64,000 nucleotides of DNA, taken from assembly GCF_000027125.1 (NCBI RefSeq), contig NC_017626.1. One strand, 5' to 3'. Source of the stretch: Escherichia coli 042 (lineage in GTDB: Bacteria > Pseudomonadota > Gammaproteobacteria > Enterobacterales > Enterobacteriaceae). The notes under the pieces were generated by a model. The model did no database searches. It was not told the origin of the DNA and saw only the letters and a program-made list of their open reading frames with translations. A program made the position numbers and the translations under genes. Below are positions 13,854-21,499 of this stretch, in pieces; within the stretch, counting starts at the first letter, position 1, and each line of letters opens with the position of its first letter.

Positions 13854-14207
13854 ATGTCATTTCTCTTACCCATCCAACTGTTCAAAATTCTTGCTGATGA
13901 GACCCGTCTGGGCATCGTTTTACTGCTAAGCGAGCTGGGAGAGTTATGTGTCTGCGATCTCTGTACTGCCCTCGATCAGTCGCAGCCCAAGATATCCCGC
14001 CACCTGGCGCTTCTTCGTGAAAGCGGGCTATTGCTGGATCGCAAGCAGGGTAAGTGGGTTCATTACCGCTTATCGCCGCATATTCCAGCATGGGCAGCGA
14101 AAATTATTGAGCAAACAAGATTAAGCCAACTGGACGACGTGCAGGCTATCGCCCGTAAGCTGGCCGCAGCCAACTGCTCTGCAGACGGTAAAGCAAGCTG
14201 CAGTTAA
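13854..14207 (+). CDS. arsR: Arsenical resistance operon repressor ArsR (As(III)-responsive)
   Basis: 117 aa with the ELCVCDL metalloid-binding motif in the ArsR/SmtB HTH. Confidence 0.9.
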   Translation: MSFLLPIQLFKILADETRLGIVLLLSELGELCVCDLCTALDQSQPKISRHLALLRESGLLLDRKQGKWVHYRLSPHIPAWAAKIIEQTRLSQLDDVQAIARKLAAANCSADGKASCS

Positions 14208-14254
14208 AAAATTTGCCTGGATATATATGATTTTCCGAATGTGAGGTGTCGAAG

Positions 14255-14617
14255 ATGAAGACGTTAACGGTGTTTGATCCGGCGATGTGTTGCAGTACCG
14301 GCGTCTGTGGTTCTGATGTTGATCAGGTGCTGGTCGATTTTTCCGCAGATGTGCAATGGCTGAAAAGCCGCGGTGTTCAGGTCGAACGTTACAATCTCGC
14401 GCAGCAACCGATGAGTTTCGTGCAAAACGAAAAAGCGAAAGCGTTTCTTGAGGCTTCCGGGGCGGAAGGATTGCCCTTGATCTTACTGGGAGGCGAAACC
14501 GTGATGGCGGGCCGTTATCCGAAACGCGCCGAGCTAGCCCGCTGGTTTGGGATCCCGCTGGAGAAGGTGGGGCTGGCACCAACACACTGCTGTGGCGGAA
14601 AAACCGACTGTTGTTGA
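14255..14617 (+). CDS. arsD: Arsenic metallochaperone / secondary repressor ArsD
   Basis: MKTLTVFDPAMCCSTGVCG N-terminus with Cys12/13/18 and a C-terminal CCGG..CC. Near-identical to R773 ArsD as recalled. Confidence 0.85.
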   Translation: MKTLTVFDPAMCCSTGVCGSDVDQVLVDFSADVQWLKSRGVQVERYNLAQQPMSFVQNEKAKAFLEASGAEGLPLILLGGETVMAGRYPKRAELARWFGIPLEKVGLAPTHCCGGKTDCC

Positions 14618-14634
14618 GCCGGTCAGGGGGACAT

Positions 14635-16386
14635 ATGAAATTCTTACAGAATATCCCGCCTTATCTGTTTTTTACCGGTAAGGGAGGTGTAGGTAAAACG
14701 TCAATTTCCTGCGCAACTGCTATCCATCTGGCGGAACAGGGAAAACGGGTTCTGCTTGTCAGCACCGACCCCGCGTCGAATGTCGGTCAGGTATTTAATC
14801 AAACTATTGGTAACGCTATTACTCCTGTGACAGCGGTTCCCGATTTGTCAGCGCTGGAAATTGACCCTCAGCAAGCCGCTGAACAGTATCGGGCCAGAAT
14901 CGTTGACCCTATCAAAGGACTTCTCCCTGAGGAGGTTGTAAATAGTATACGCGAACAACTTTCGGGAGCATGTACGACAGAGATCGCGGCGTTCGATGAG
15001 TTCACCGGTTTACTGACCGATGCCTCTCTGCTGGCCCGCTTTGATCACATCATTTTTGATACCGCGCCAACGGGCCATACCATACGACTTCTGCAGCTCC
15101 CCGGTGCCTGGAGCAGTTTTATTGAAAGTAATCCCGATGGTGCCTCCTGTCTTGGCCCGATGGCTGGGCTGGAAAAACAGCGTGAGCAGTACGCTGATGC
15201 GGTAGAAGCATTATCCGATCCTGAGCGTACCCGCCTGGTGCTGGTTGCACGCCTGCAAAAATCAACATTGCAGGAAGTCGCTCGCACTCATGAAGAACTG
15301 GCAGCGATTGGTCTTAAAAATCAGTATCTGGTGATCAACGGCGTATTGCCTGAGTCCGGGCAGCAAAATGACCCACTAGCAATGGCAATAGTTCAGCGTG
15401 AGCAGGAAGCCCTGGTAAATTTACCCGCCGGTTTATCGACCATTCCAGCAGATACCCTCTTTCTTCAACCGGTGAACATGGTTGGCGTGCCTGCATTAAA
15501 AGGTCTTTTTAATACCCGTTTCGAGCCTGCCCCACTCTCTGGCCAGGTGCGCCAGCAATTCTCTGAAAACATGTCATTCTCTGAGTTAGTGAATGATATT
15601 GCCCGCAGTGAACACGGTCTGATCATGCTGATGGGAAAAGGCGGCGTGGGGAAAACCACAATGGCCGCAGCTATCGCCGTCAGGCTGGCAGATATGGGAT
15701 TCGATGTGCATCTTACAACCTCCGATCCTGCTGCCCACATTAACACTACCCTAAACGGCACACTTAACAACCTACAGGTCAGCAGGATCAATCCGCAGGA
15801 AGAGACCGAGCGCTATCGCCAGCATGTCCTTGAGACAAAGGGAAAAGATCTCGATGAAGCGGGGAAACGACTGCTGGAAGAGGATTTACGCTCTCCCTGC
15901 ACCGAAGAGATTGCTGTATTTCAGGCGTTCTCGCGCGTGATCCGTGAGGCGGGTAAACGTTTTGTGGTGATGGATACCGCACCAACCGGTCACACGCTGT
16001 TACTGCTGGATGCCACCGGGGCTTATCACCGTGAAATTGCGAAAAAAATGGGCGAAAAAGGTCACTTTACTACGCCAATGATGCAACTTCAGGATCCGCA
16101 ACGCACCAAAGTGCTGCTGGTTACGCTGCCTGAAACCACACCCGTACTGGAAGCGGCTAATTTGCAGGCCGATCTTAAACGCGCAGGGATTCATCCCTGG
16201 GGCTGGATAATCAATAACTGCCTTTCTATTGCGGAAACTCGTTCGTCGCTACTGTGTCAGCGAGCAACGCAGGAACGACCACAAATTGAGGCGGTGATGG
16301 CCCGACATGCTAAGCGTGTAGCGCTGGTCCCTCTATTCGCACAAGAACCTACGGGTATCGAAAAACTCAGAAAGCTGGCAAGTTAA
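14635..16386 (+). CDS. arsA: Arsenite-transporting ATPase ArsA (duplicated A1/A2 P-loop ATPase)
   Basis: 583 aa with two GKGGVGKT Walker A motifs and two DTAPTGHT signature motifs. High identity to R773 ArsA as recalled. Confidence 0.9.
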   Translation: MKFLQNIPPYLFFTGKGGVGKTSISCATAIHLAEQGKRVLLVSTDPASNVGQVFNQTIGNAITPVTAVPDLSALEIDPQQAAEQYRARIVDPIKGLLPEEVVNSIREQLSGACTTEIAAFDEFTGLLTDASLLARFDHIIFDTAPTGHTIRLLQLPGAWSSFIESNPDGASCLGPMAGLEKQREQYADAVEALSDPERTRLVLVARLQKSTLQEVARTHEELAAIGLKNQYLVINGVLPESGQQNDPLAMAIVQREQEALVNLPAGLSTIPADTLFLQPVNMVGVPALKGLFNTRFEPAPLSGQVRQQFSENMSFSELVNDIARSEHGLIMLMGKGGVGKTTMAAAIAVRLADMGFDVHLTTSDPAAHINTTLNGTLNNLQVSRINPQEETERYRQHVLETKGKDLDEAGKRLLEEDLRSPCTEEIAVFQAFSRVIREAGKRFVVMDTAPTGHTLLLLDATGAYHREIAKKMGEKGHFTTPMMQLQDPQRTKVLLVTLPETTPVLEAANLQADLKRAGIHPWGWIINNCLSIAETRSSLLCQRATQERPQIEAVMARHAKRVALVPLFAQEPTGIEKLRKLAS

Positions 16387-16428
16387 TTTTTTATACAGGG
16401 CGACCATGTCGCCCTGTCAGGAGGGTGT

Positions 16429-17718
16429 ATGTTACTGGCAGGCGCTATTTTTGTCCTGACCATCGTATTGGTTATCTGGCAGCCGAAAGGTTTAGGCATC
16501 GGCTGGAGTGCAACGCTCGGCGCGGTACTGGCGTTGCTTACGGGCGTGGTTCATCCGGGTGATATTCCGGTGGTGTGGAATATCGTCTGGAACGCGACGG
16601 CGGCGTTTATTGCCGTCATTATCATCAGCCTGCTGCTGGATGAGTCCGGCTTTTTTGAATGGGCGGCGCTGCACGTCTCACGCTGGGGCAATGGACGCGG
16701 TCGCTTGCTGTTCACCTGGATTGTCCTGCTCGGTGCCGCCGTTGCAGCTCTGTTTGCCAATGATGGCGCGGCGCTGATTTTAACGCCAATTGTCATCGCC
16801 ATGCTGCTGGCTTTAGGATTCAGTAAAGGCACTACGCTTGCGTTTGTGATGGCGGCCGGGTTCATTGCCGATACCGCCAGCCTGCCGCTTATTGTCTCCA
16901 ACCTGGTGAATATCGTTTCCGCAGATTTCTTTGGCCTCGGCTTTCGCGAATACGCATCGGTGATGGTGCCGGTGGATATCGCCGCAATTGTTGCCACGCT
17001 GGTGATGTTGCATCTTTATTTCCGCAAAGATATTCCGCAGAACTACGACATGGCGCTGCTGAAATCGCCCGCAGAAGCGATTAAAGATCCTGCTACGTTC
17101 AAAACTGGCTGGTTTGTTTTACTGTTTCTGCTGGTGGGATTTTTCGTCCTGGAACCGCTCGGCATTCCGGTAAGCGCCATTGCGGCAGTGGGCGCGCTGA
17201 TATTATTTGCCGTCGCTAAACGCGGTCATGCAATTAATACGGGTAAAGTCCTGCGCGGTGCGCCCTGGCAGATTGTCATCTTCTCGCTCGGCATGTATCT
17301 GGTGGTTTATGGCCTGCGCAATGCCGGACTAACGGAATATCTTTCTGGCGTACTCAACGTGCTGGCGGAAAACGGCCTGTGGGCCGCGACGCTCGGCACC
17401 GGATTCCTCACCGCCTTCCTCTCTTCTATTATGAACAATATGCCGACGGTACTGGTTGGCGCGTTGTCCATTGATGGCAGCACGGCATCTGGCGTTATCA
17501 AAGAAGCGATGGTTTATGCCAACGTGATTGGCTGCGATTTGGGACCGAAAATTACCCCAATTGGTAGCCTGGCTACGCTACTCTGGCTGCACGTACTTTC
17601 GCAGAAGAATATGACTATCAGCTGGGGATATTACTTCCGTACAGGAATTATCATGACCCTGCCGGTGCTTTTTGTGACGCTGGCTGCGCTGGCGCTACGC
17701 CTCTCTTTCACTTTGTAA
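16429..17718 (+). CDS. arsB: Arsenite/antimonite efflux permease ArsB
   Basis: The 429 aa polytopic protein begins [28 protein letters not shown], typical of ArsB. Confidence 0.9.
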
Positions 17719-17730
17719 TGAGATATTGAT

Positions 17731-18156
17731 ATGAGCAACATTACCATTTATCACAACCCGGCCTGCGGTACGTCGCGTAATACGCTGGAGATGATCCGCA
17801 ACAGCGGTACAGAACCGACCATTATCTATTATCTGGAAACACCGCCAACGCGCGATGAGCTGGTCAAACTCATTGCCGATATGGGGATTTCCGTACGCGC
17901 GCTGTTGCGTAAAAACGTCGAGCCGTATGAGGAACTGGGCCTTGCAGAAGATAAATTTACTGACGATCGGCTAATCGACTTTATGCTTCAGCACCCGATT
18001 CTGATTAATCGCCCGATTGTGGTGACGCCGCTGGGAACTCGCCTGTGCCGCCCTTCAGAAGTGGTGCTGGAAATTCTGCCAGATGCGCAACAACGCGCGT
18101 TCACCAAGGAAGATGGCGAGAAAGTGGTTGATGAAGCGGGTAAACGCCTGAAATAA
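17731..18156 (+). CDS. arsC: Arsenate reductase ArsC (glutaredoxin-coupled)
   Basis: 141 aa with the MSNITIYHNPACGTSRNTLEMIR catalytic Cys12 motif. Confidence 0.92.
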   Translation: MSNITIYHNPACGTSRNTLEMIRNSGTEPTIIYYLETPPTRDELVKLIADMGISVRALLRKNVEPYEELGLAEDKFTDDRLIDFMLQHPILINRPIVVTPLGTRLCRPSEVVLEILPDAQQRAFTKEDGEKVVDEAGKRLK

Positions 18157-18192
18157 AGCGGCGATATCCACTGCCGATAGTTGGTAAAGTGC

Positions 18193-18295
18193 GCTTCGTT
18201 TATGTCGGATGCGACGCTAACGCGTCTTATCCGACCTACAAAACCGTGCAAATTCAATATATGGCATGAAATCTGTAGCGCGTAGCGCATCAGGC
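18193..18295. repeat. REP elements (two palindromic units) downstream of arsC
   Basis: tgtcggatgcgacgctaacgcgtcttatccgacctaca and ctgtagcgcgtagcgcatcaggc are the typical REP stem sequences. The second unit overlaps the last codons of the downstream minus-strand regulator. Confidence 0.5.
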
Positions 18296-18586
18296 AATTT
18301 TGCTATTTACGCAGCACTCCTCGCGTAAGAATTCAATTATCGCTTCCAGCATTGCGTATTGCGAAACACACATCAGCGTCCGACTCTCACGGTTTTGTTT
18401 GACCAGCCCTACCGATACCAGTGCTGAAATATGGTGACTGAGTGTAGAGCCGGGTATCCCAAGCTGCTTTTGCAACTCACCGACCGGCAAACCTTGTTCC
18501 CCCGCTTTGACCAGGTGTTTGAATATGAACAAACGGGTCGGGTGACCTAGCTCTTTCAGCGCTTTAGCAACTTCTTCCAACTGCAT
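18290..18586 (-). CDS. ArsR/SmtB-family transcriptional regulator with C-terminal Cys cluster (atypical metalloid sensor type)
   Basis: The 98 aa winged-HTH (LSHHISALVSVGLV) lacks the canonical ELCVCDL site but has C73 and a C-terminal CC pair (REECCV). It is divergent from the ArsP-like permease. Confidence 0.7.
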   Translation of the reverse strand: MQLEEVAKALKELGHPTRLFIFKHLVKAGEQGLPVGELQKQLGIPGSTLSHHISALVSVGLVKQNRESRTLMCVSQYAMLEAIIEFLREECCVNSKIA

Positions 18587-18693
18587 ATGACACCCCCTTT
18601 GTCTGGTTGATATTTCGATAATACCAGAAATATCTTGATCTGAATTTCATTTCGATTATTCTGGAAATATGGATTCATTCAATGAGGTTACGT

Positions 18694-19695
18694 ATGAGTA
18701 GTTGGCTTGCGATGCTGCAAGATGCCGCAGAGATGTTTGTGTTTCTCGCCGTCGAGCTTTCTTTGCTGTTTATAGTGATTAGTGCCGGTGTCAGCCTGAT
18801 AAGACAAAAGGTGCCAGACCATAAAATCCAGCAGATGATGGGGGCCAGAAAAGGGAGAGGCTATCTCCTGGCGGCTCTGTTGGGAGCCGTTACCCCGTTC
18901 TGTAGTTGCTCGACAATCCCCATGTTACGTGGATTGTTGTCAGCGAAAGCCGGGTTCGGTCCGACCCTCACTTTTTTATTTGTTTCACCGTTACTTAATC
19001 CCATTATCGTCGGACTAATGTGGGTAACCTTTGGCTGGAAAGTTACCTTGTTGTACGCGATTATCGCCGCCGGCATCTCCGTACTTGCCAGTATTATCCT
19101 CGATTCTCTGGGGTTTGAACGTCATATCATTGCCAGTAAAAGCTCATCAGCAAATTGTTGTGCTCCAGCCAAAACTTCGCCAGGGACGACATATACGCCC
19201 ATAAAAGTGAGTTGCTGTAGTCCAGCGGCTAAAGTCATTGAGAAACCCGCAGTTAACTGTTGCAGTACCAAAGCAGTGGCAAGTATTAATCCCATAAAAT
19301 TAGCCATCAAAGATGCATTGCAGCAGTTTAAAGACGTACTGCCATATCTTGTGTTAGGGGTATTACTAGGCTCTTTTATTTATGGCTTTATCCCCTCACA
19401 GTGGATTGCCGCTCATGCAGGGGCAGATAATCCCTTCGCCATCCCATTGAGCGCCGTTGTCGGAATTCCGCTGTATATCCGGGCAGAGGCGGTTATCCCT
19501 CTGGCATCTGTTCTGATGACAAAAGGAATGGGTCTGGGAGCATTAATGGCATTAATCATCGGCAGTGCCGGAGCAAGCCTGACGGAAGTGATATTACTTA
19601 AATCAATGTTCAGAATACCGATGATAGTTGCATTCCTGACGGTTATATTAGGTATGGCTATCTTGATGGGCTATTTGACTCAAATGCTATTTTAA
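18694..19695 (+). CDS. ArsP-like organoarsenical efflux permease (COG0701 permease family). The start is taken at ATG 18694; the alternative is 18682.
   Basis: The polytopic membrane protein carries the motif TPFCSCSTIP, the TPFcSCSxxP signature described for the ArsP methylarsenite permease. A central loop holds three Cys-Cys pairs (NCCAP, SCCSP, NCCST). GAGG SD upstream. Confidence 0.65.
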   Translation: MSSWLAMLQDAAEMFVFLAVELSLLFIVISAGVSLIRQKVPDHKIQQMMGARKGRGYLLAALLGAVTPFCSCSTIPMLRGLLSAKAGFGPTLTFLFVSPLLNPIIVGLMWVTFGWKVTLLYAIIAAGISVLASIILDSLGFERHIIASKSSSANCCAPAKTSPGTTYTPIKVSCCSPAAKVIEKPAVNCCSTKAVASINPIKLAIKDALQQFKDVLPYLVLGVLLGSFIYGFIPSQWIAAHAGADNPFAIPLSAVVGIPLYIRAEAVIPLASVLMTKGMGLGALMALIIGSAGASLTEVILLKSMFRIPMIVAFLTVILGMAILMGYLTQMLF

Positions 19696-20275: not shown

Positions 20276-21499
20276 ATGTCAATTGACTTTACCCCAGGTA
20301 TGATAAATACATATCACGGCGATATTTATAACCGCACAACAGATACCGACAATGTTAAAACACCAGACACACCGATGTGGCCTTGTGATAATCAGGAAGA
20401 ACAGCAGCCCATTAATTTTTCATTGTCTGAAGAAGGATATAACGCTGAACAATTTGATTTAGCGCAACAACAACTCCAACAAATTAATGCGTACCACACG
20501 AACACCACATATACAAATGCAGACTACTCAAAAATTGTGGCTCAAATTGTAAGTCTTATTAATAACATTGAAACGATAAGTTCGACACCACTTACGCAAC
20601 AGACACAATCAATACTTAATCAGATTAATAACATTAGATACGAAAAGAATAAAAATTCTGAATGTCGAATCATTGTTGTCGCTAATCCTAAACCCGACAA
20701 GGCAATCATAACTAAAATTAGCGTAGAAGAGGGAATACCAGTAAGATTCAGTGTCCAAACCATGTTTTCAGATACTAATTTTATTACTGAACAACGAGCT
20801 GACTTACCGACTAATATAAAAGATATTCAAAGCCTGTATCAAAAAATGACGAAGTTATATATTGAGCACAGTGAAAATAAAAACAGGATGAAAGTCTTTG
20901 CCGGAACCAACTTTATTGATTTCAATATGACAGGACAGAACCTGTCCGGGTTCGTTCTAACCTTGTCAAGGTTTTATTTCGAAGATCTACTTAATATAAA
21001 TTTCACTGACGCAAATTTAGGTGACGCTATTTTTTCACATAAAGAACACCCTACCCCAAAATTATATAAAGACGAACAATACCTTGACAAACAAATCGAA
21101 GGTTTATTTTCAACATTATTAACCATTAATGACAACTTTTTACGAGCAAAAGCGGAAATTGCTTCGACAATAATTAAATTCTTAGAGGCCAGGATAACCA
21201 ATATTTCATACAATGACATATTAAAATATCAGAAAGAATTCCAAAAGCAATGTTATAAGCAAGTTAAAGCCTTTACGACACTCTCCCGATACAATAAAAT
21301 TCAAACATGGGCAGAAATGTCTGAATATCAATTCGAAGTATTTCAATACGAGATGCTTAACCCCAAAAAAATGTCATACGCACCTTATTTAAAGAGATCG
21401 CTACCTGATGAAAAAACTATAAATTATGGGGTGGAAATAGAAACACCAACTGGCAAAAGAATTCGCTTATCAAATCATTACCAGAATATAATCCCATAA
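20276..21499 (+). CDS. yhiS: YhiS, uninterrupted (pentapeptide-repeat-like protein of unknown function)
   Basis: 407 aa, AT-rich, AAGGA SD. The pentapeptide-like repeats are in the middle ([29 protein letters not shown]). It occupies the slot between ars and slp where K-12 carries an IS5-disrupted yhiS. Confidence 0.6.

Follow-up and report, generated by a model that had tools for sequence, protein, structure and literature searches.

Two described systems bear on the gene pair presented here, a permease of C. jejuni and a repressor-permease pair of Shewanella putrefaciens. From the studies by Shen in 2014 and Chen in 2015, ArsP of C. jejuni is reported to carry out efflux of MAs(III) and Rox(III); to our knowledge it is the only ArsP assayed for transport, and we know of none from the subclade of the permease described below. 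Chen, Nadar and Rosen are said to have described SpArsR of S. putrefaciens in 2017 as a MAs(III)-selective repressor. This selectivity has been assigned to C101/C102, and SpArsR is described as unresponsive to As(III) for want of a third ligand (PMC11868830, PMC13236881). A biosensor built on SpArsR/P_arsP responded strongly to 0.1-1 µM MMAs(III); at 50 µM As(III) it gave only 9% of the signal of the repressor-free control strain, and neither DMAs(III) nor pentavalent species elicited a response (PMC12124457). On the side of the permeases, all ArsP homologues share an intramembrane C(S/T)C motif, given as tPF-CSC in 'cluster 2' (PMC4435449).

Here we describe a gene pair of Escherichia coli 042 which would, with a probability of roughly 0.75, be the orthologue in this species of the SpArsR-ArsP module that deals with trivalent organoarsenicals. 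It is a system of known type, of which this is an additional E. coli member, and not a new kind. The pair lies in a stretch of 64,000 nucleotides of contig NC_017626.1 (the window), where the genes of a 98-residue regulator and a 333-residue permease are arranged head to head directly past arsRDABC (Table 1). The regulator gene is convergent to the operon, with 134 bp between the end of arsRDABC and its stop codon. Annotations of E. coli ST2747 and of a Citrobacter prophage show the same order of arsRDABC followed by the pair, and the current annotation of the pair goes no further than 'permease' and 'ArsR/SmtB family transcription factor'.

Table 1. Coordinates of the ars operon, the divergent pair and its putative sites in the window
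Feature	Position	Strand	Basis or remark
arsR (canonical)	13854-14207	+	ORF and translation
arsD	14246-14617	+	ORF and translation
arsA	14635-16386	+	ORF and translation
arsB	16429-17718	+	ORF and translation
arsC	17731-18156	+	ORF and translation
SpArsR-type ArsR/SmtB repressor, 98 aa	18290..18586	-	Pfam/NCBIfam matches, AfArsR alignment, SpArsR identity
Putative operator site 1, GATATTTCGATAATACCAGAAATATC, perfect 8-10-8 palindrome	18609..18634	.	Abuts permease -35
Putative permease promoter: -35 TTGATC, 16-nt spacer, -10 TATTCT	18635-18640, 18657-18662	+	Read from sequence
Putative operator site 2, ATTTCGATTATTCTGGAAATAT	18649..18670	.	Overlaps inferred permease -10
ArsP-family (PF03773, TC 2.A.119) permease, 333 aa	18694..19695	+	Pfam match
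Codons of T67-PFCSCSTI-P76	18892..18921	+	Inferred intramembrane thiol binding site
Hypervariable Cys-rich hydrophilic inter-repeat loop, residues ~139-199	19108..19290	+	pLDDT, homologue statistics
Codons of the loop CC dyads	19156-19161, 19213-19218, 19258-19263	+	Translation

The regulator and its putative operators

Two Pfam models, HTH_20 (1.5e-14) and HTH_5 (5e-7), indicate an ArsR/SmtB winged-helix fold for the regulator, and the NCBIfam model HTH_metalloreg scores 61.9, above its cut-off of 55. The best match among solved structures is AfArsR (PDB 6J05, E = 5e-10). The only cysteines of the regulator are residues 73, 91 and 92, and its C-terminus reads …REECCVNSKIA. As the first-pass annotation had stated, the 98-residue translation lacks the ELCVCDL(C) site of the ArsR encoded upstream, i.e. 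the CVCDLC site of canonical R773-type ArsR. The C-terminal cysteine pair had been likened to the site of AfArsR-type sensors, and the alignment bears this out: C91 and C92, a vicinal pair at the C-terminus of helix alpha5, fall on C95 and C96 of AfArsR. An equivalent of AfArsR C102 is missing, as the pair is followed by six residues, none of them cysteine, and the regulator does not possess the three-cysteine site C95/C96/C102 of type 2 As(III) sensors.

Much higher similarity is found with SpArsR of S. putrefaciens 200, at 58% identity over 92 residues, compared to about 32% with AfArsR and 25% with canonical ArsR. The SpArsR sequence was reconstructed from a machine-read supplement in which two bases were dropped, and was confirmed via a 98%-identical database protein. 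Both proteins have the same set of cysteines (C73/C91/C92, corresponding to C83/C101/C102 of SpArsR), and all cognate regulators listed for the homologous loci have these three residues. The genera that carry the cognate regulators are also the source of SpArsR homologues with 63-70% identity. Judged by these comparisons, the regulator is an orthologue of the MAs(III)-selective SpArsR. The idea that C73 supplies a third As(III) ligand from the other subunit is disfavoured, since SpArsR has the equivalent C83 and yet hardly responds to As(III).

Two putative operators lie in the intergenic region. Site 1 is identical at 22/24 and 20/24 positions to the two sites in the S. putrefaciens arsP promoter, and is conserved from Enterobacterales to Deferribacteraceae and also on an Acinetobacter plasmid. 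Site 2 arises from a 37-nt direct repeat, of which it is the second copy; most of the orthologous intergenic regions examined keep a second site at an equal relative position, and in most of them TTGAC follows site 1. By these matches, the operator of the regulator is orthologous to that of the methylarsenite-responsive Shewanella system. The putative permease promoter between and across the two sites has a match of 8/12, which is under the scan threshold, and it was therefore not listed by the promoter scan.

The permease and its cysteine-rich loop

The permease reading frame has two candidate ATG starts (18682/18694..19695, + strand). The most likely start is ATG 18694, and the upstream ATG is unlikely to be used, because a GAGG is found at 18684-18687, orthologues begin at that methionine, and PGAP agrees. 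A proposed HMM search confirmed the suspected relationship to ArsP: the Pfam model ArsP_1 matches with E = 1.2e-51 and 176 bits (cut-off 32.3) over profile positions 3-293 of 294, by which the permease is a member of the ArsP family. It is 53% identical to the product of the arsP gene controlled by SpArsR. Only two NCBIfam models, SO_0444 and SaoE, match the permease, both below their cut-offs (109.2 vs 300 and 86 vs 325, respectively). A sequence search against solved structures gave no match, and Foldseek with the predicted model of the permease returned nothing significant.

The two halves of the permease (residues 2-138 and 200-332) show matching helix patterns in the AF2 secondary structure; the ArsP literature gives a 4+4 arrangement that includes a variable loop. 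C70 and C72 lie at the break between half-helices 55-66 and 71-83. The surrounding segment TPFCSCSTIP is invariant in three homologue alignments; its invariance in the 80 loci of the genome scan is by construction, because CSCSTIPM was the search pattern. This segment had been taken as an ArsP signature, and it is indeed present at residues 67-76, but it is a family-wide feature which is also found in the SO_0444 Cu/Zn exporters and in SaoE. Since C(S/T)C is conserved across the whole family, TPFCSCS alone cannot indicate the substrate, and we rejected it as evidence of an arsenic substrate. A full-text literature search for 'TPFCSCS' found no mention.

The loop between the two halves contains the three CC dyads noticed earlier, namely ANCCAP (C155-156), VSCCSP (C174-175) and VNCCST (C189-190), and its residues 150-196 are predicted to be disordered (pLDDT < 50). 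Over 82 homologues the cysteine content of the loop is 10.6%, vs 0.8% in the remainder of the protein, and 199 CC dyads were observed in the loops, compared to 58.9 +/- 6.9 in shuffles; the cysteine enrichment is beyond chance. The loops of these homologues vary from 44 to 155 residues, with 2-18 cysteines and 0-9 CC dyads. The first-pass annotation called the loop unusual; such a loop is common to all relatives sampled, at 46-96% identity. Charge counts suggest that it is probably cytoplasmic. Tandem Repeats Finder found no repeats in the DNA under the loop, and its length variation is therefore not accounted for by any evident array of repeats in the present allele.

A role of the loop in substrate capture or sensing was hypothesized at the outset. 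As a tentative version of this idea, the loop could be a built-in metallochaperone-like 'antenna', of which the vicinal dithiols capture trivalent (organo)arsenicals in the cytoplasm and deliver them to C70/C72, and it could also be where ArsD/ArsA dock or transfer their load in arsB-less arsD-arsA-arsP operons. Such docking, if true, would turn a small elevator-type secondary carrier into an ATP-driven organoarsenical pump. In the searchable literature neither the antenna nor the docking is described for ArsP.

Distribution of the pair and its deletion from K-12

At least 80% of the region is kept at 95-100% identity in 2221 of the 5426 complete E. coli genomes (~41%). On chromosomes, prophages and plasmids alike, the pair or close paralogues of it adjoin ars genes, in ten or more different arrangements. 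In E. coli the pair directly follows arsRDABC or arsRBC, on IncI/IncF/IncC plasmids the permease gene is paired with a regulator-arsH-sigma-arsD-arsA series, and on an Enterobacter plasmid the pair lies inside an ars cluster with arsH. Hundreds of conjugative Escherichia and Salmonella plasmids carry the module, several of them from poultry or meat isolates. Among 80 species-level related loci, ars genes are found at most 5 kb away in 14, in several gene orders, and no ars gene within 5 kb in the other 66. In the Vibrio group, the genes found with the module are instead those of an ECF sigma factor, GST and PAP2. Operons of arsD, arsA and the permease gene without arsB occur in Deefgea, Crenobacter, Endozoicomonas and Vibrio algivorus, a hint that some of the relatives may have inorganic As(III) as a substrate. 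None of the loci inspected showed linkage of the module to cop, czc, znt or mer.

The pair had been reported as absent from the corresponding interval of K-12, with a distance of about 0.8 kb between arsC and yhiS. It is indeed not intact there, and the spacer is shorter (629 bp in MG1655, compared to 2119 bp here), but relics of both genes are present. Because of these relics, it can be concluded that K-12 lost the pair by deletion and that the pair is ancestral at this locus; a recent insertion in the present strain was rejected on the same grounds.

Proposed function and relation to known systems

We propose the following mechanism, in which the inducer of the E. coli regulator, the substrate and membrane topology of the permease and any role of its loop are inferred. 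A dimer of the 98-residue repressor would bind the palindromes of sites 1 and 2, which surround and partly cover the putative permease promoter and, probably, the repressor's own divergent one, and would thus keep both genes off. C91 and C92 at the end of alpha5 would ligate methylarsenite and probably other trivalent aromatic arsenicals (e.g. reduced roxarsone), a two-sulfur site being presumably enough for R-As(III) and insufficient for As(OH)3. The arsenical-bound repressor would leave the DNA, whereupon the permease would be made and would export the organoarsenical out of the cytoplasm. In the permease, with a predicted fold akin to that of elevator-type DASS/ArsB transporters, C70 and C72 at the tip of the TPFCSCS hairpin would form an intramembrane binding site. 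The disordered, probably cytoplasmic loop, rich in S-C-C, may be the first to bind the substrate and then hand it over, in the manner of the vicinal cysteine pairs of ArsD.

Against this reading stand the Cu/Zn exporters that the family also contains, the absence of ars genes within 5 kb of most related loci, the arsB-less operons of some relatives, and the invariance of C73. The last of these would fit a permease that is mainly an exporter of inorganic As(III)/Sb(III) and the membrane partner of ArsA/ArsD (an 'ArsAP' pump), with a regulator that senses As(III) by means of C73' as third ligand. The arsB-less operons mentioned above (with the order arsR-arsD-perm-arsA in Deefgea) and the IncI/IncF plasmids argue for such a pump, as do many Vibrio-group regulators with an extra cysteine 3-5 residues past the CC pair, a possible S3 site. 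Moreover, coupling and co-evolution of ArsA and ArsP have been proposed by Castillo and Saier, who list an E. coli member (PMC2963123). We nevertheless consider this explanation unlikely, as SpArsR with its identical C83/C101/C102 set responds very weakly to As(III), ArsB already serves ArsA in this window, several of the arsB-less operons also hold Acr3, and C. jejuni ArsP reportedly fails to extrude As(III) (PMC6205960). The scarcity of ars genes near most related loci would also agree with a pair that acts on a soft metal cation, be it Cu, Zn, Cd or Hg, as the SO_0444 branch does, the loop being a metal-binding domain. SO_0444, which is needed under Zn/Cu stress (PMC3219624), and SaoE are the sole NCBIfam models matched, the CSC motif is common to these branches, and poly-Cys loops bind many thiophilic metals. 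However, both model scores remain far under their cut-offs, the regulator and operator are orthologous to those of a methylarsenite-responsive system, and in the loci inspected it is ars linkage, including arsH, that recurs, with no linkage to cop, czc, znt or mer; a metal substrate is less probable still.

Two further possibilities are both very improbable. The regulator could belong with BigR, SqrR and YgaV among the thiol/persulfide or redox sensors, with a permease exporting sulfur or electrophile species; YgaV and BigR are its second and third PDB matches (E = 2e-7), the NCBIfam BigR model gives a weak match, and GST and ECF sigma factor genes are neighbours in Vibrio loci. In BigR/SqrR, one of the two sensing cysteines resides in helix alpha2, but the regulator has no cysteine before residue 73 and hence none in alpha2; the BigR model scores only 38.5 vs a cut-off of 155, while sequence identity is far greater with SpArsR, which also has the same operator. 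A decaying remnant, functionless in present-day E. coli, might be suspected from the loss of the pair in K-12 and many other strains, from an IS5 inside the pair in one strain and from a plasmid copy split by ISCro1. This is countered by the intact state of both ORFs here, by the many complete genomes that keep the region, by a transmembrane core that is nearly invariant between E. coli and Aeromonas, and by the conservation of operators and promoter.

If the pair is indeed an SpArsR-ArsP module, about two in five complete E. coli genomes hold a dedicated module that seems made for sensing methylarsenite and similar trivalent organoarsenicals and for expelling them, and the annotation could be put right in thousands of genomes. 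Its loss from K-12 may explain why it went unnoticed in the best-studied bacterium; lacking the pair, this strain is a convenient null background in which to test it. The same function would also matter for the way in which Enterobacteriaceae of gut and farm deal with arsenic methylated by microbes and with feed additives that are aromatic arsenicals. The cysteine-rich loop and the arsD-arsA-arsP operons provide testable leads on substrate acquisition by ArsP-type carriers.

Of the other systems, C. jejuni ArsP shares with the permease the PF03773/TC 2.A.119 family, the C(S/T)C motif and ars linkage, a likeness at the family level; it is reported to be shorter (~315 residues) and is encoded in an arsP-arsR-arsC-acr3 operon, unlike the E. 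coli pair. AfArsR of Acidithiobacillus ferrooxidans, a type 2 As(III) sensor, uses C102 as third ligand, which the E. coli regulator does not have. The SO_0444 and SaoE branches have the Pfam family and the CSC motif in common with the permease, but have different regulators (ZntR-like for SO_0444) and no ars context. ArsD, of which the vicinal cysteine pairs bind trivalent metalloids, contains repeated pairs in flexible segments (MCCSTGVC…HCCGGKTDCC) that are similar to the dyads of the permease loop, without sequence homology, and the loop belongs to a membrane protein. In comparisons with the predicted model, ArsB and DASS/IT-superfamily transporters (Pho90, INDY, LaINDY and L. ferriphilum ArsB 10tp) have 9-12% identity to the permease; they comprise 430-540 residues, compared to about 285 ordered residues in the permease, which unlike them would carry thiols at the tip of the first hairpin.

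Among the systems compared, the closest resemblance is with S. putrefaciens 200, where SpArsR (Sput200_1227) and the divergent arsP (Sput200_1226) have the same layout as the E. coli pair. TPFCSCS is likewise present in the Shewanella permease, the central loop of which also has three CC dyads, and the two operator palindromes are nearly identical to those of E. coli. The same cluster encodes a second ArsP_1 paralogue (arsP2) which is loop-less and 29% identical to the window permease, and the PF03773 ArsP family therefore has distinct subclades. The two systems differ in that SpArsR has an N-terminal extension of 10 residues that is lacking in the E. coli regulator, and in that the Shewanella regulator heads an arsC-arsR-arsP2-arsE-gapdh-arsJ cluster, whereas the E. 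coli pair follows arsRDABC.

Regulator, operators and gene layout

The regulator and permease genes are probably (roughly three chances in four, judged from sequence) the E. coli representative of a known module, the methylarsenite-responsive SpArsR-ArsP pair. They lie head to head 134 bp beyond the ars operon, and are followed by an intact yhiS-like ORF, slp and dctR. The most likely start codon of the permease is ATG 18694, as it is preceded six bases upstream by GAGG, orthologues align from the same methionine, and the RefSeq annotation of an allele of about 97% identity also starts there. The spacer downstream of arsC contains a REP-like element that recurs at many other genome sites, which accounts for thousands of short partial matches to E. 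coli genomes.

Features of the ars region and of the adjoining regulator-permease pair
Feature	Position	Strand	Basis or remark
arsR-arsD-arsA-arsB-arsC, complete operon	13854-18156	+	ORFs
arsC-to-regulator 3' end spacer with REP-like palindromic element (…GCCGGATGCGACGCTAACGCGTCTTATCCGACCTAC…)	18160-18290		
Regulator ORF, 98 aa	18290-18586	-	window ORF reading
Predicted operator site 1, palindrome GATATTTC-N10-GAAATATC	18609-18634		in one 37-nt copy
Predicted operator site 2, ATTTCGATTATTCTGGAAATAT	18649-18670		in other 37-nt copy
Permease ORF, 333 aa	18694-19695	+	window ORF reading
yhiS, intact 407-aa ORF	20276-21499		

By its Pfam matches (HTH_20 and HTH_5) and an above-cut-off NCBIfam match (HTH_metalloreg), the regulator belongs to the ArsR/SmtB winged-helix proteins; it scores far below the NCBIfam cut-offs for the BigR, CmtR, PagR and Rv2640c families. 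As described in the first-pass annotation, it lacks the canonical ELCVCDL site, present in the upstream ArsR as ELCVCDLC, and its cysteines are Cys73 and the C-terminal pair of REECCV (positions 73, 91 and 92 only). The proposed likeness to AfArsR-type sensors also holds, AfArsR (6J05) being the best match among solved structures (E = 5e-10). The As(III) ligands C95 and C96 of AfArsR align with C91 and C92, whereas its third ligand, C102, has no equivalent in the regulator, which ends before it.

A CC pair with no third downstream ligand is also the two-cysteine pattern that defines SpArsR, a repressor of Shewanella putrefaciens 200 described as methylarsenite-selective (PMC11868830, PMC13236881). 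The sequences of its gene and of the 222-bp arsP promoter were taken from the supplement of a 2025 biosensor paper (PMC12124457), and two machine-reading frame slips were corrected before translation; the resulting protein has cysteines at 83, 101 and 102, in agreement with the published numbering, and is supported by a 98%-identical database protein. Over 92 residues the regulator and SpArsR share 58% identity, and they have exactly the same three cysteines once a 10-residue N-terminal extension of SpArsR is allowed for. MMAs(III) at 0.1-1 uM elicited a strong response from the SpArsR/P_arsP biosensor; with 50 uM As(III) its signal reached no more than 9% of that of a control strain lacking the repressor, and DMAs(III) and pentavalent species elicited no response (PMC12124457).

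The regulator-permease intergenic region consists in part of two tandem 37-nt copies, each with a predicted operator site. A -35-like hexamer (TTGATC) adjoins the end of site 1 and a -10-like hexamer (TATTCT) is overlapped by site 2, an arrangement that was read off the sequence and scores below the promoter-scan threshold. The two-site layout around TTGAC is kept in most of 24 orthologous intergenic regions inspected, from Enterobacterales, Aeromonas, Amphritea, Microbulbifer, Deferribacteraceae and an Acinetobacter plasmid. Two sites in the S. putrefaciens arsP promoter match site 1 at 22/24 and 20/24 positions; together with the similarity to SpArsR this indicates that both the regulator and its DNA target correspond to a system of published behaviour.

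The permease and its cysteine-rich loop

The ArsP homology claimed for the permease was confirmed by an end-to-end match to Pfam ArsP_1 (PF03773; E = 1e-51). The only NCBIfam models touched are those of the SO_0444 Cu/Zn exporter and SaoE, with scores of about one third of the cut-off. The motif TPFCSCSTIP, previously taken as an ArsP signature, is present and fits the family, but does not point to an arsenical substrate. All ArsP homologues share a C(S/T)C motif, preceded by 'tPF' in one of two clusters (PMC4435449), and CSC is also a signature of the SO_0444 and SaoE branches. TPFCSCS is thus a mark of the family, and was ruled out as evidence of an arsenical substrate.

The three vicinal Cys-Cys (CC) dyads reported earlier (ANCCAP, VSCCSP and VNCCST) are indeed found in the permease. 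Between E. coli and Aeromonas the transmembrane core is nearly invariant, whereas the central segment defies alignment and differs greatly among homologues, ranging from 44 to 155 residues, with 2-18 cysteines and 0-9 CC dyads. In 82 homologues, which are related and hence not independent samples, cysteine makes up 10.6% of the loop versus 0.8% of the remaining protein, and 199 loop dyads (142 of them preceded by Ser) were observed versus 58.9 +/- 6.9 in composition-preserving shuffles (maximum 88). The retention of CC dyads in an otherwise freely drifting segment nonetheless argues for selection. Extreme loops were seen in uncultured Desulfovibrionaceae (155 aa, 18 Cys and 9 dyads in L041 8001-9254; 137 aa, 15 Cys and 7 dyads in L046 5728-6933), and the second of two tandem permease genes in Enterovibrio (L085 8001-10162) has a short loop of 44 aa with 2 Cys.

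An AlphaFold2 model built from a 40-sequence alignment (pLDDT 77.9, pTM 0.73) has pLDDT below 50 at residues 150-196, so that the loop is predicted to be disordered. The model contains two helix-break-helix elements, the first with motif residues TPFC at its tip and the second with IPLYIR. Structure searches with the model suggest an elevator-type fold of the ion-transporter superfamily with opposed hairpins; Foldseek gave no significant match in the PDB. Charge counts in 40 homologues fit best with an inverted-repeat topology with the N terminus outside and a cytoplasmic central loop (short-loop K+R 7.4 inside versus 2.4 outside), as compared to 3.8 and 6.0 on the two sides for plain eight-crossing models in either orientation, and we infer that the loop is cytoplasmic.

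Distribution and genomic context

At least 80% of the 1.6-kb pair region is present in 2221 of 5426 complete E. coli genomes, always after arsC and annotated as 'ArsR/SmtB family transcription factor' and 'permease'. MG1655 lacks the pair, as previously stated, but its arsC-yhiS spacer is 629 bp rather than about 0.8 kb, and still holds relics of both genes: for the regulator the 3'-terminal ~70 bp, for the permease a 42-bp fragment (K-12 L097 4208-4929 compared with window 17701-18359 and 19300-19341). K-12 has therefore lost the pair by deletion. In K-12 an IS5 interrupts yhiS, which is intact in the window. The closest chromosomal match (H1) has an IS5 inside the pair region. No description of the K-12 deletion, or of the E. 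coli pair as SpArsR-ArsP orthologue, was found in the searchable literature, which is weak evidence.

In Citrobacter (L005-L007 3230-9092) arsRDABC and the pair are cargo of a lambdoid prophage, between the replication genes and dinI/rusA, and form a phage-borne arsenic resistance island. Hundreds of plasmids of Escherichia and Salmonella carry a paralogue with 75-80% identity (629 records lie between 60 and 80%), and in these plasmids arsH, an ECF sigma factor, arsD and arsA come after the regulator; ArsH reportedly oxidises trivalent organoarsenicals. Among the plasmid copies listed (H22-H44), several originate from poultry or meat (chicken, duck, turkey, Salmonella Infantis megaplasmids), and aromatic arsenical feed additives could, anecdotally, have been the selective agent. 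In one E. coli plasmid (L002 8394-12181) the permease is split by ISCro1. More distant homologues adjoin the regulator and arsH in an Enterobacter plasmid ars cluster (46%), and are found in a staphylococcal-type ars cluster on an Enterococcus plasmid (37%).

Among 80 species-level loci (46-96% identity), a cognate regulator is present in at least 47, with C73, C91 and C92 in every one listed. Fourteen loci carry ars genes no more than 5 kb away, arranged in several different ways, and 66 have none in that range; the link to arsenic is thus recurrent, far above chance, and not universal. In 15 Vibrio-group loci (e.g. L080 6886-7485 (-)) the regulator is followed by an ECF sigma factor that is 24-31% identical to the SigZ-like one of the plasmid cluster, where it separates arsH from arsD (L008 5208-5753 (-), L011). 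On a Citrobacter braakii plasmid (L015) a sigma-70 family gene precedes a 33% ArsP_1 homologue and a thioredoxin-like gene, and a Pseudomonadales MAG contig has two separate regulator-permease pairs (L064 1235-2680, 8895-10328).

Many Vibrionaceae and Oceanospirillales regulators have an extra cysteine 3-5 residues past the CC (such as ECCVDEC and ECCADEKC; L051, L055, L060-L062, L066, L067, L074-L076, L080, L083, L086, L087, L089, L093, L094, L096), and some of these also have one at position 79. With the extra cysteine these regulators, unlike those of E. coli and Shewanella, could have a natural three-sulfur site and respond to As(III).

Relation to known systems

The loci with nearby ars genes include operons without arsB, of the order arsR-arsD-permease-arsA or arsD-arsA-permease, in Deefgea (L027), Crenobacter (L037), Endozoicomonas (L068) and Vibrio algivorus (L070). 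These hint that the permease may also transport inorganic As(III) in some relatives, and agree with an earlier proposal in which ArsP-type permeases can be energised by ArsA; co-occurrence and co-evolution of ArsP homologues with ArsA, including E. coli and Aeromonas members, were described by Castillo and Saier (2010; PMC2963123). The same authors described an ArsP subtype with a hydrophilic insert of about 100 aa between TMS 4 and 5 (PMC2963123), and the TCDB group described the variable loop of ArsP homologues and proposed a 4+4 topology. The searchable literature yielded no description of the cysteine content of the loop, an absence that is weak evidence. A cytoplasmic, reduced poly-dithiol loop near a thiol-lined site recalls the vicinal cysteine pairs of ArsD, also encoded in the window, and by analogy the loop may play an ArsD-like role.

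On a Shewanella contig encoding the 98%-identical SpArsR, an ArsP_1 gene is divergent from it across a 221-bp spacer, and the regulator is the first gene of a cluster that comprises LMW-phosphatase arsC, arsR, a second ArsP_1, an ArsE-type thioredoxin-like protein, GAPDH and an arsJ-like MFS protein. Over its full length the divergent ArsP shares 53% identity with the window permease, and its central loop likewise carries three CC dyads, whereas the second ArsP_1 is only 29% identical and has no such loop. The window pair is therefore the counterpart of the SpArsR-controlled arsP, in a distinct subclade. The earlier reading of an ArsR-family sensor resembling AfArsR-type sensors with an ArsP-like permease was essentially right. 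For the regulator, the assignment to the module rests on orthology to a tested protein and operator; the substrate proposed for the permease rests on family membership, gene context and the way its orthologue is regulated. SpArsR and its arsP promoter have already been characterised; the loop and a possible coupling to ArsA are the parts that could prove new.
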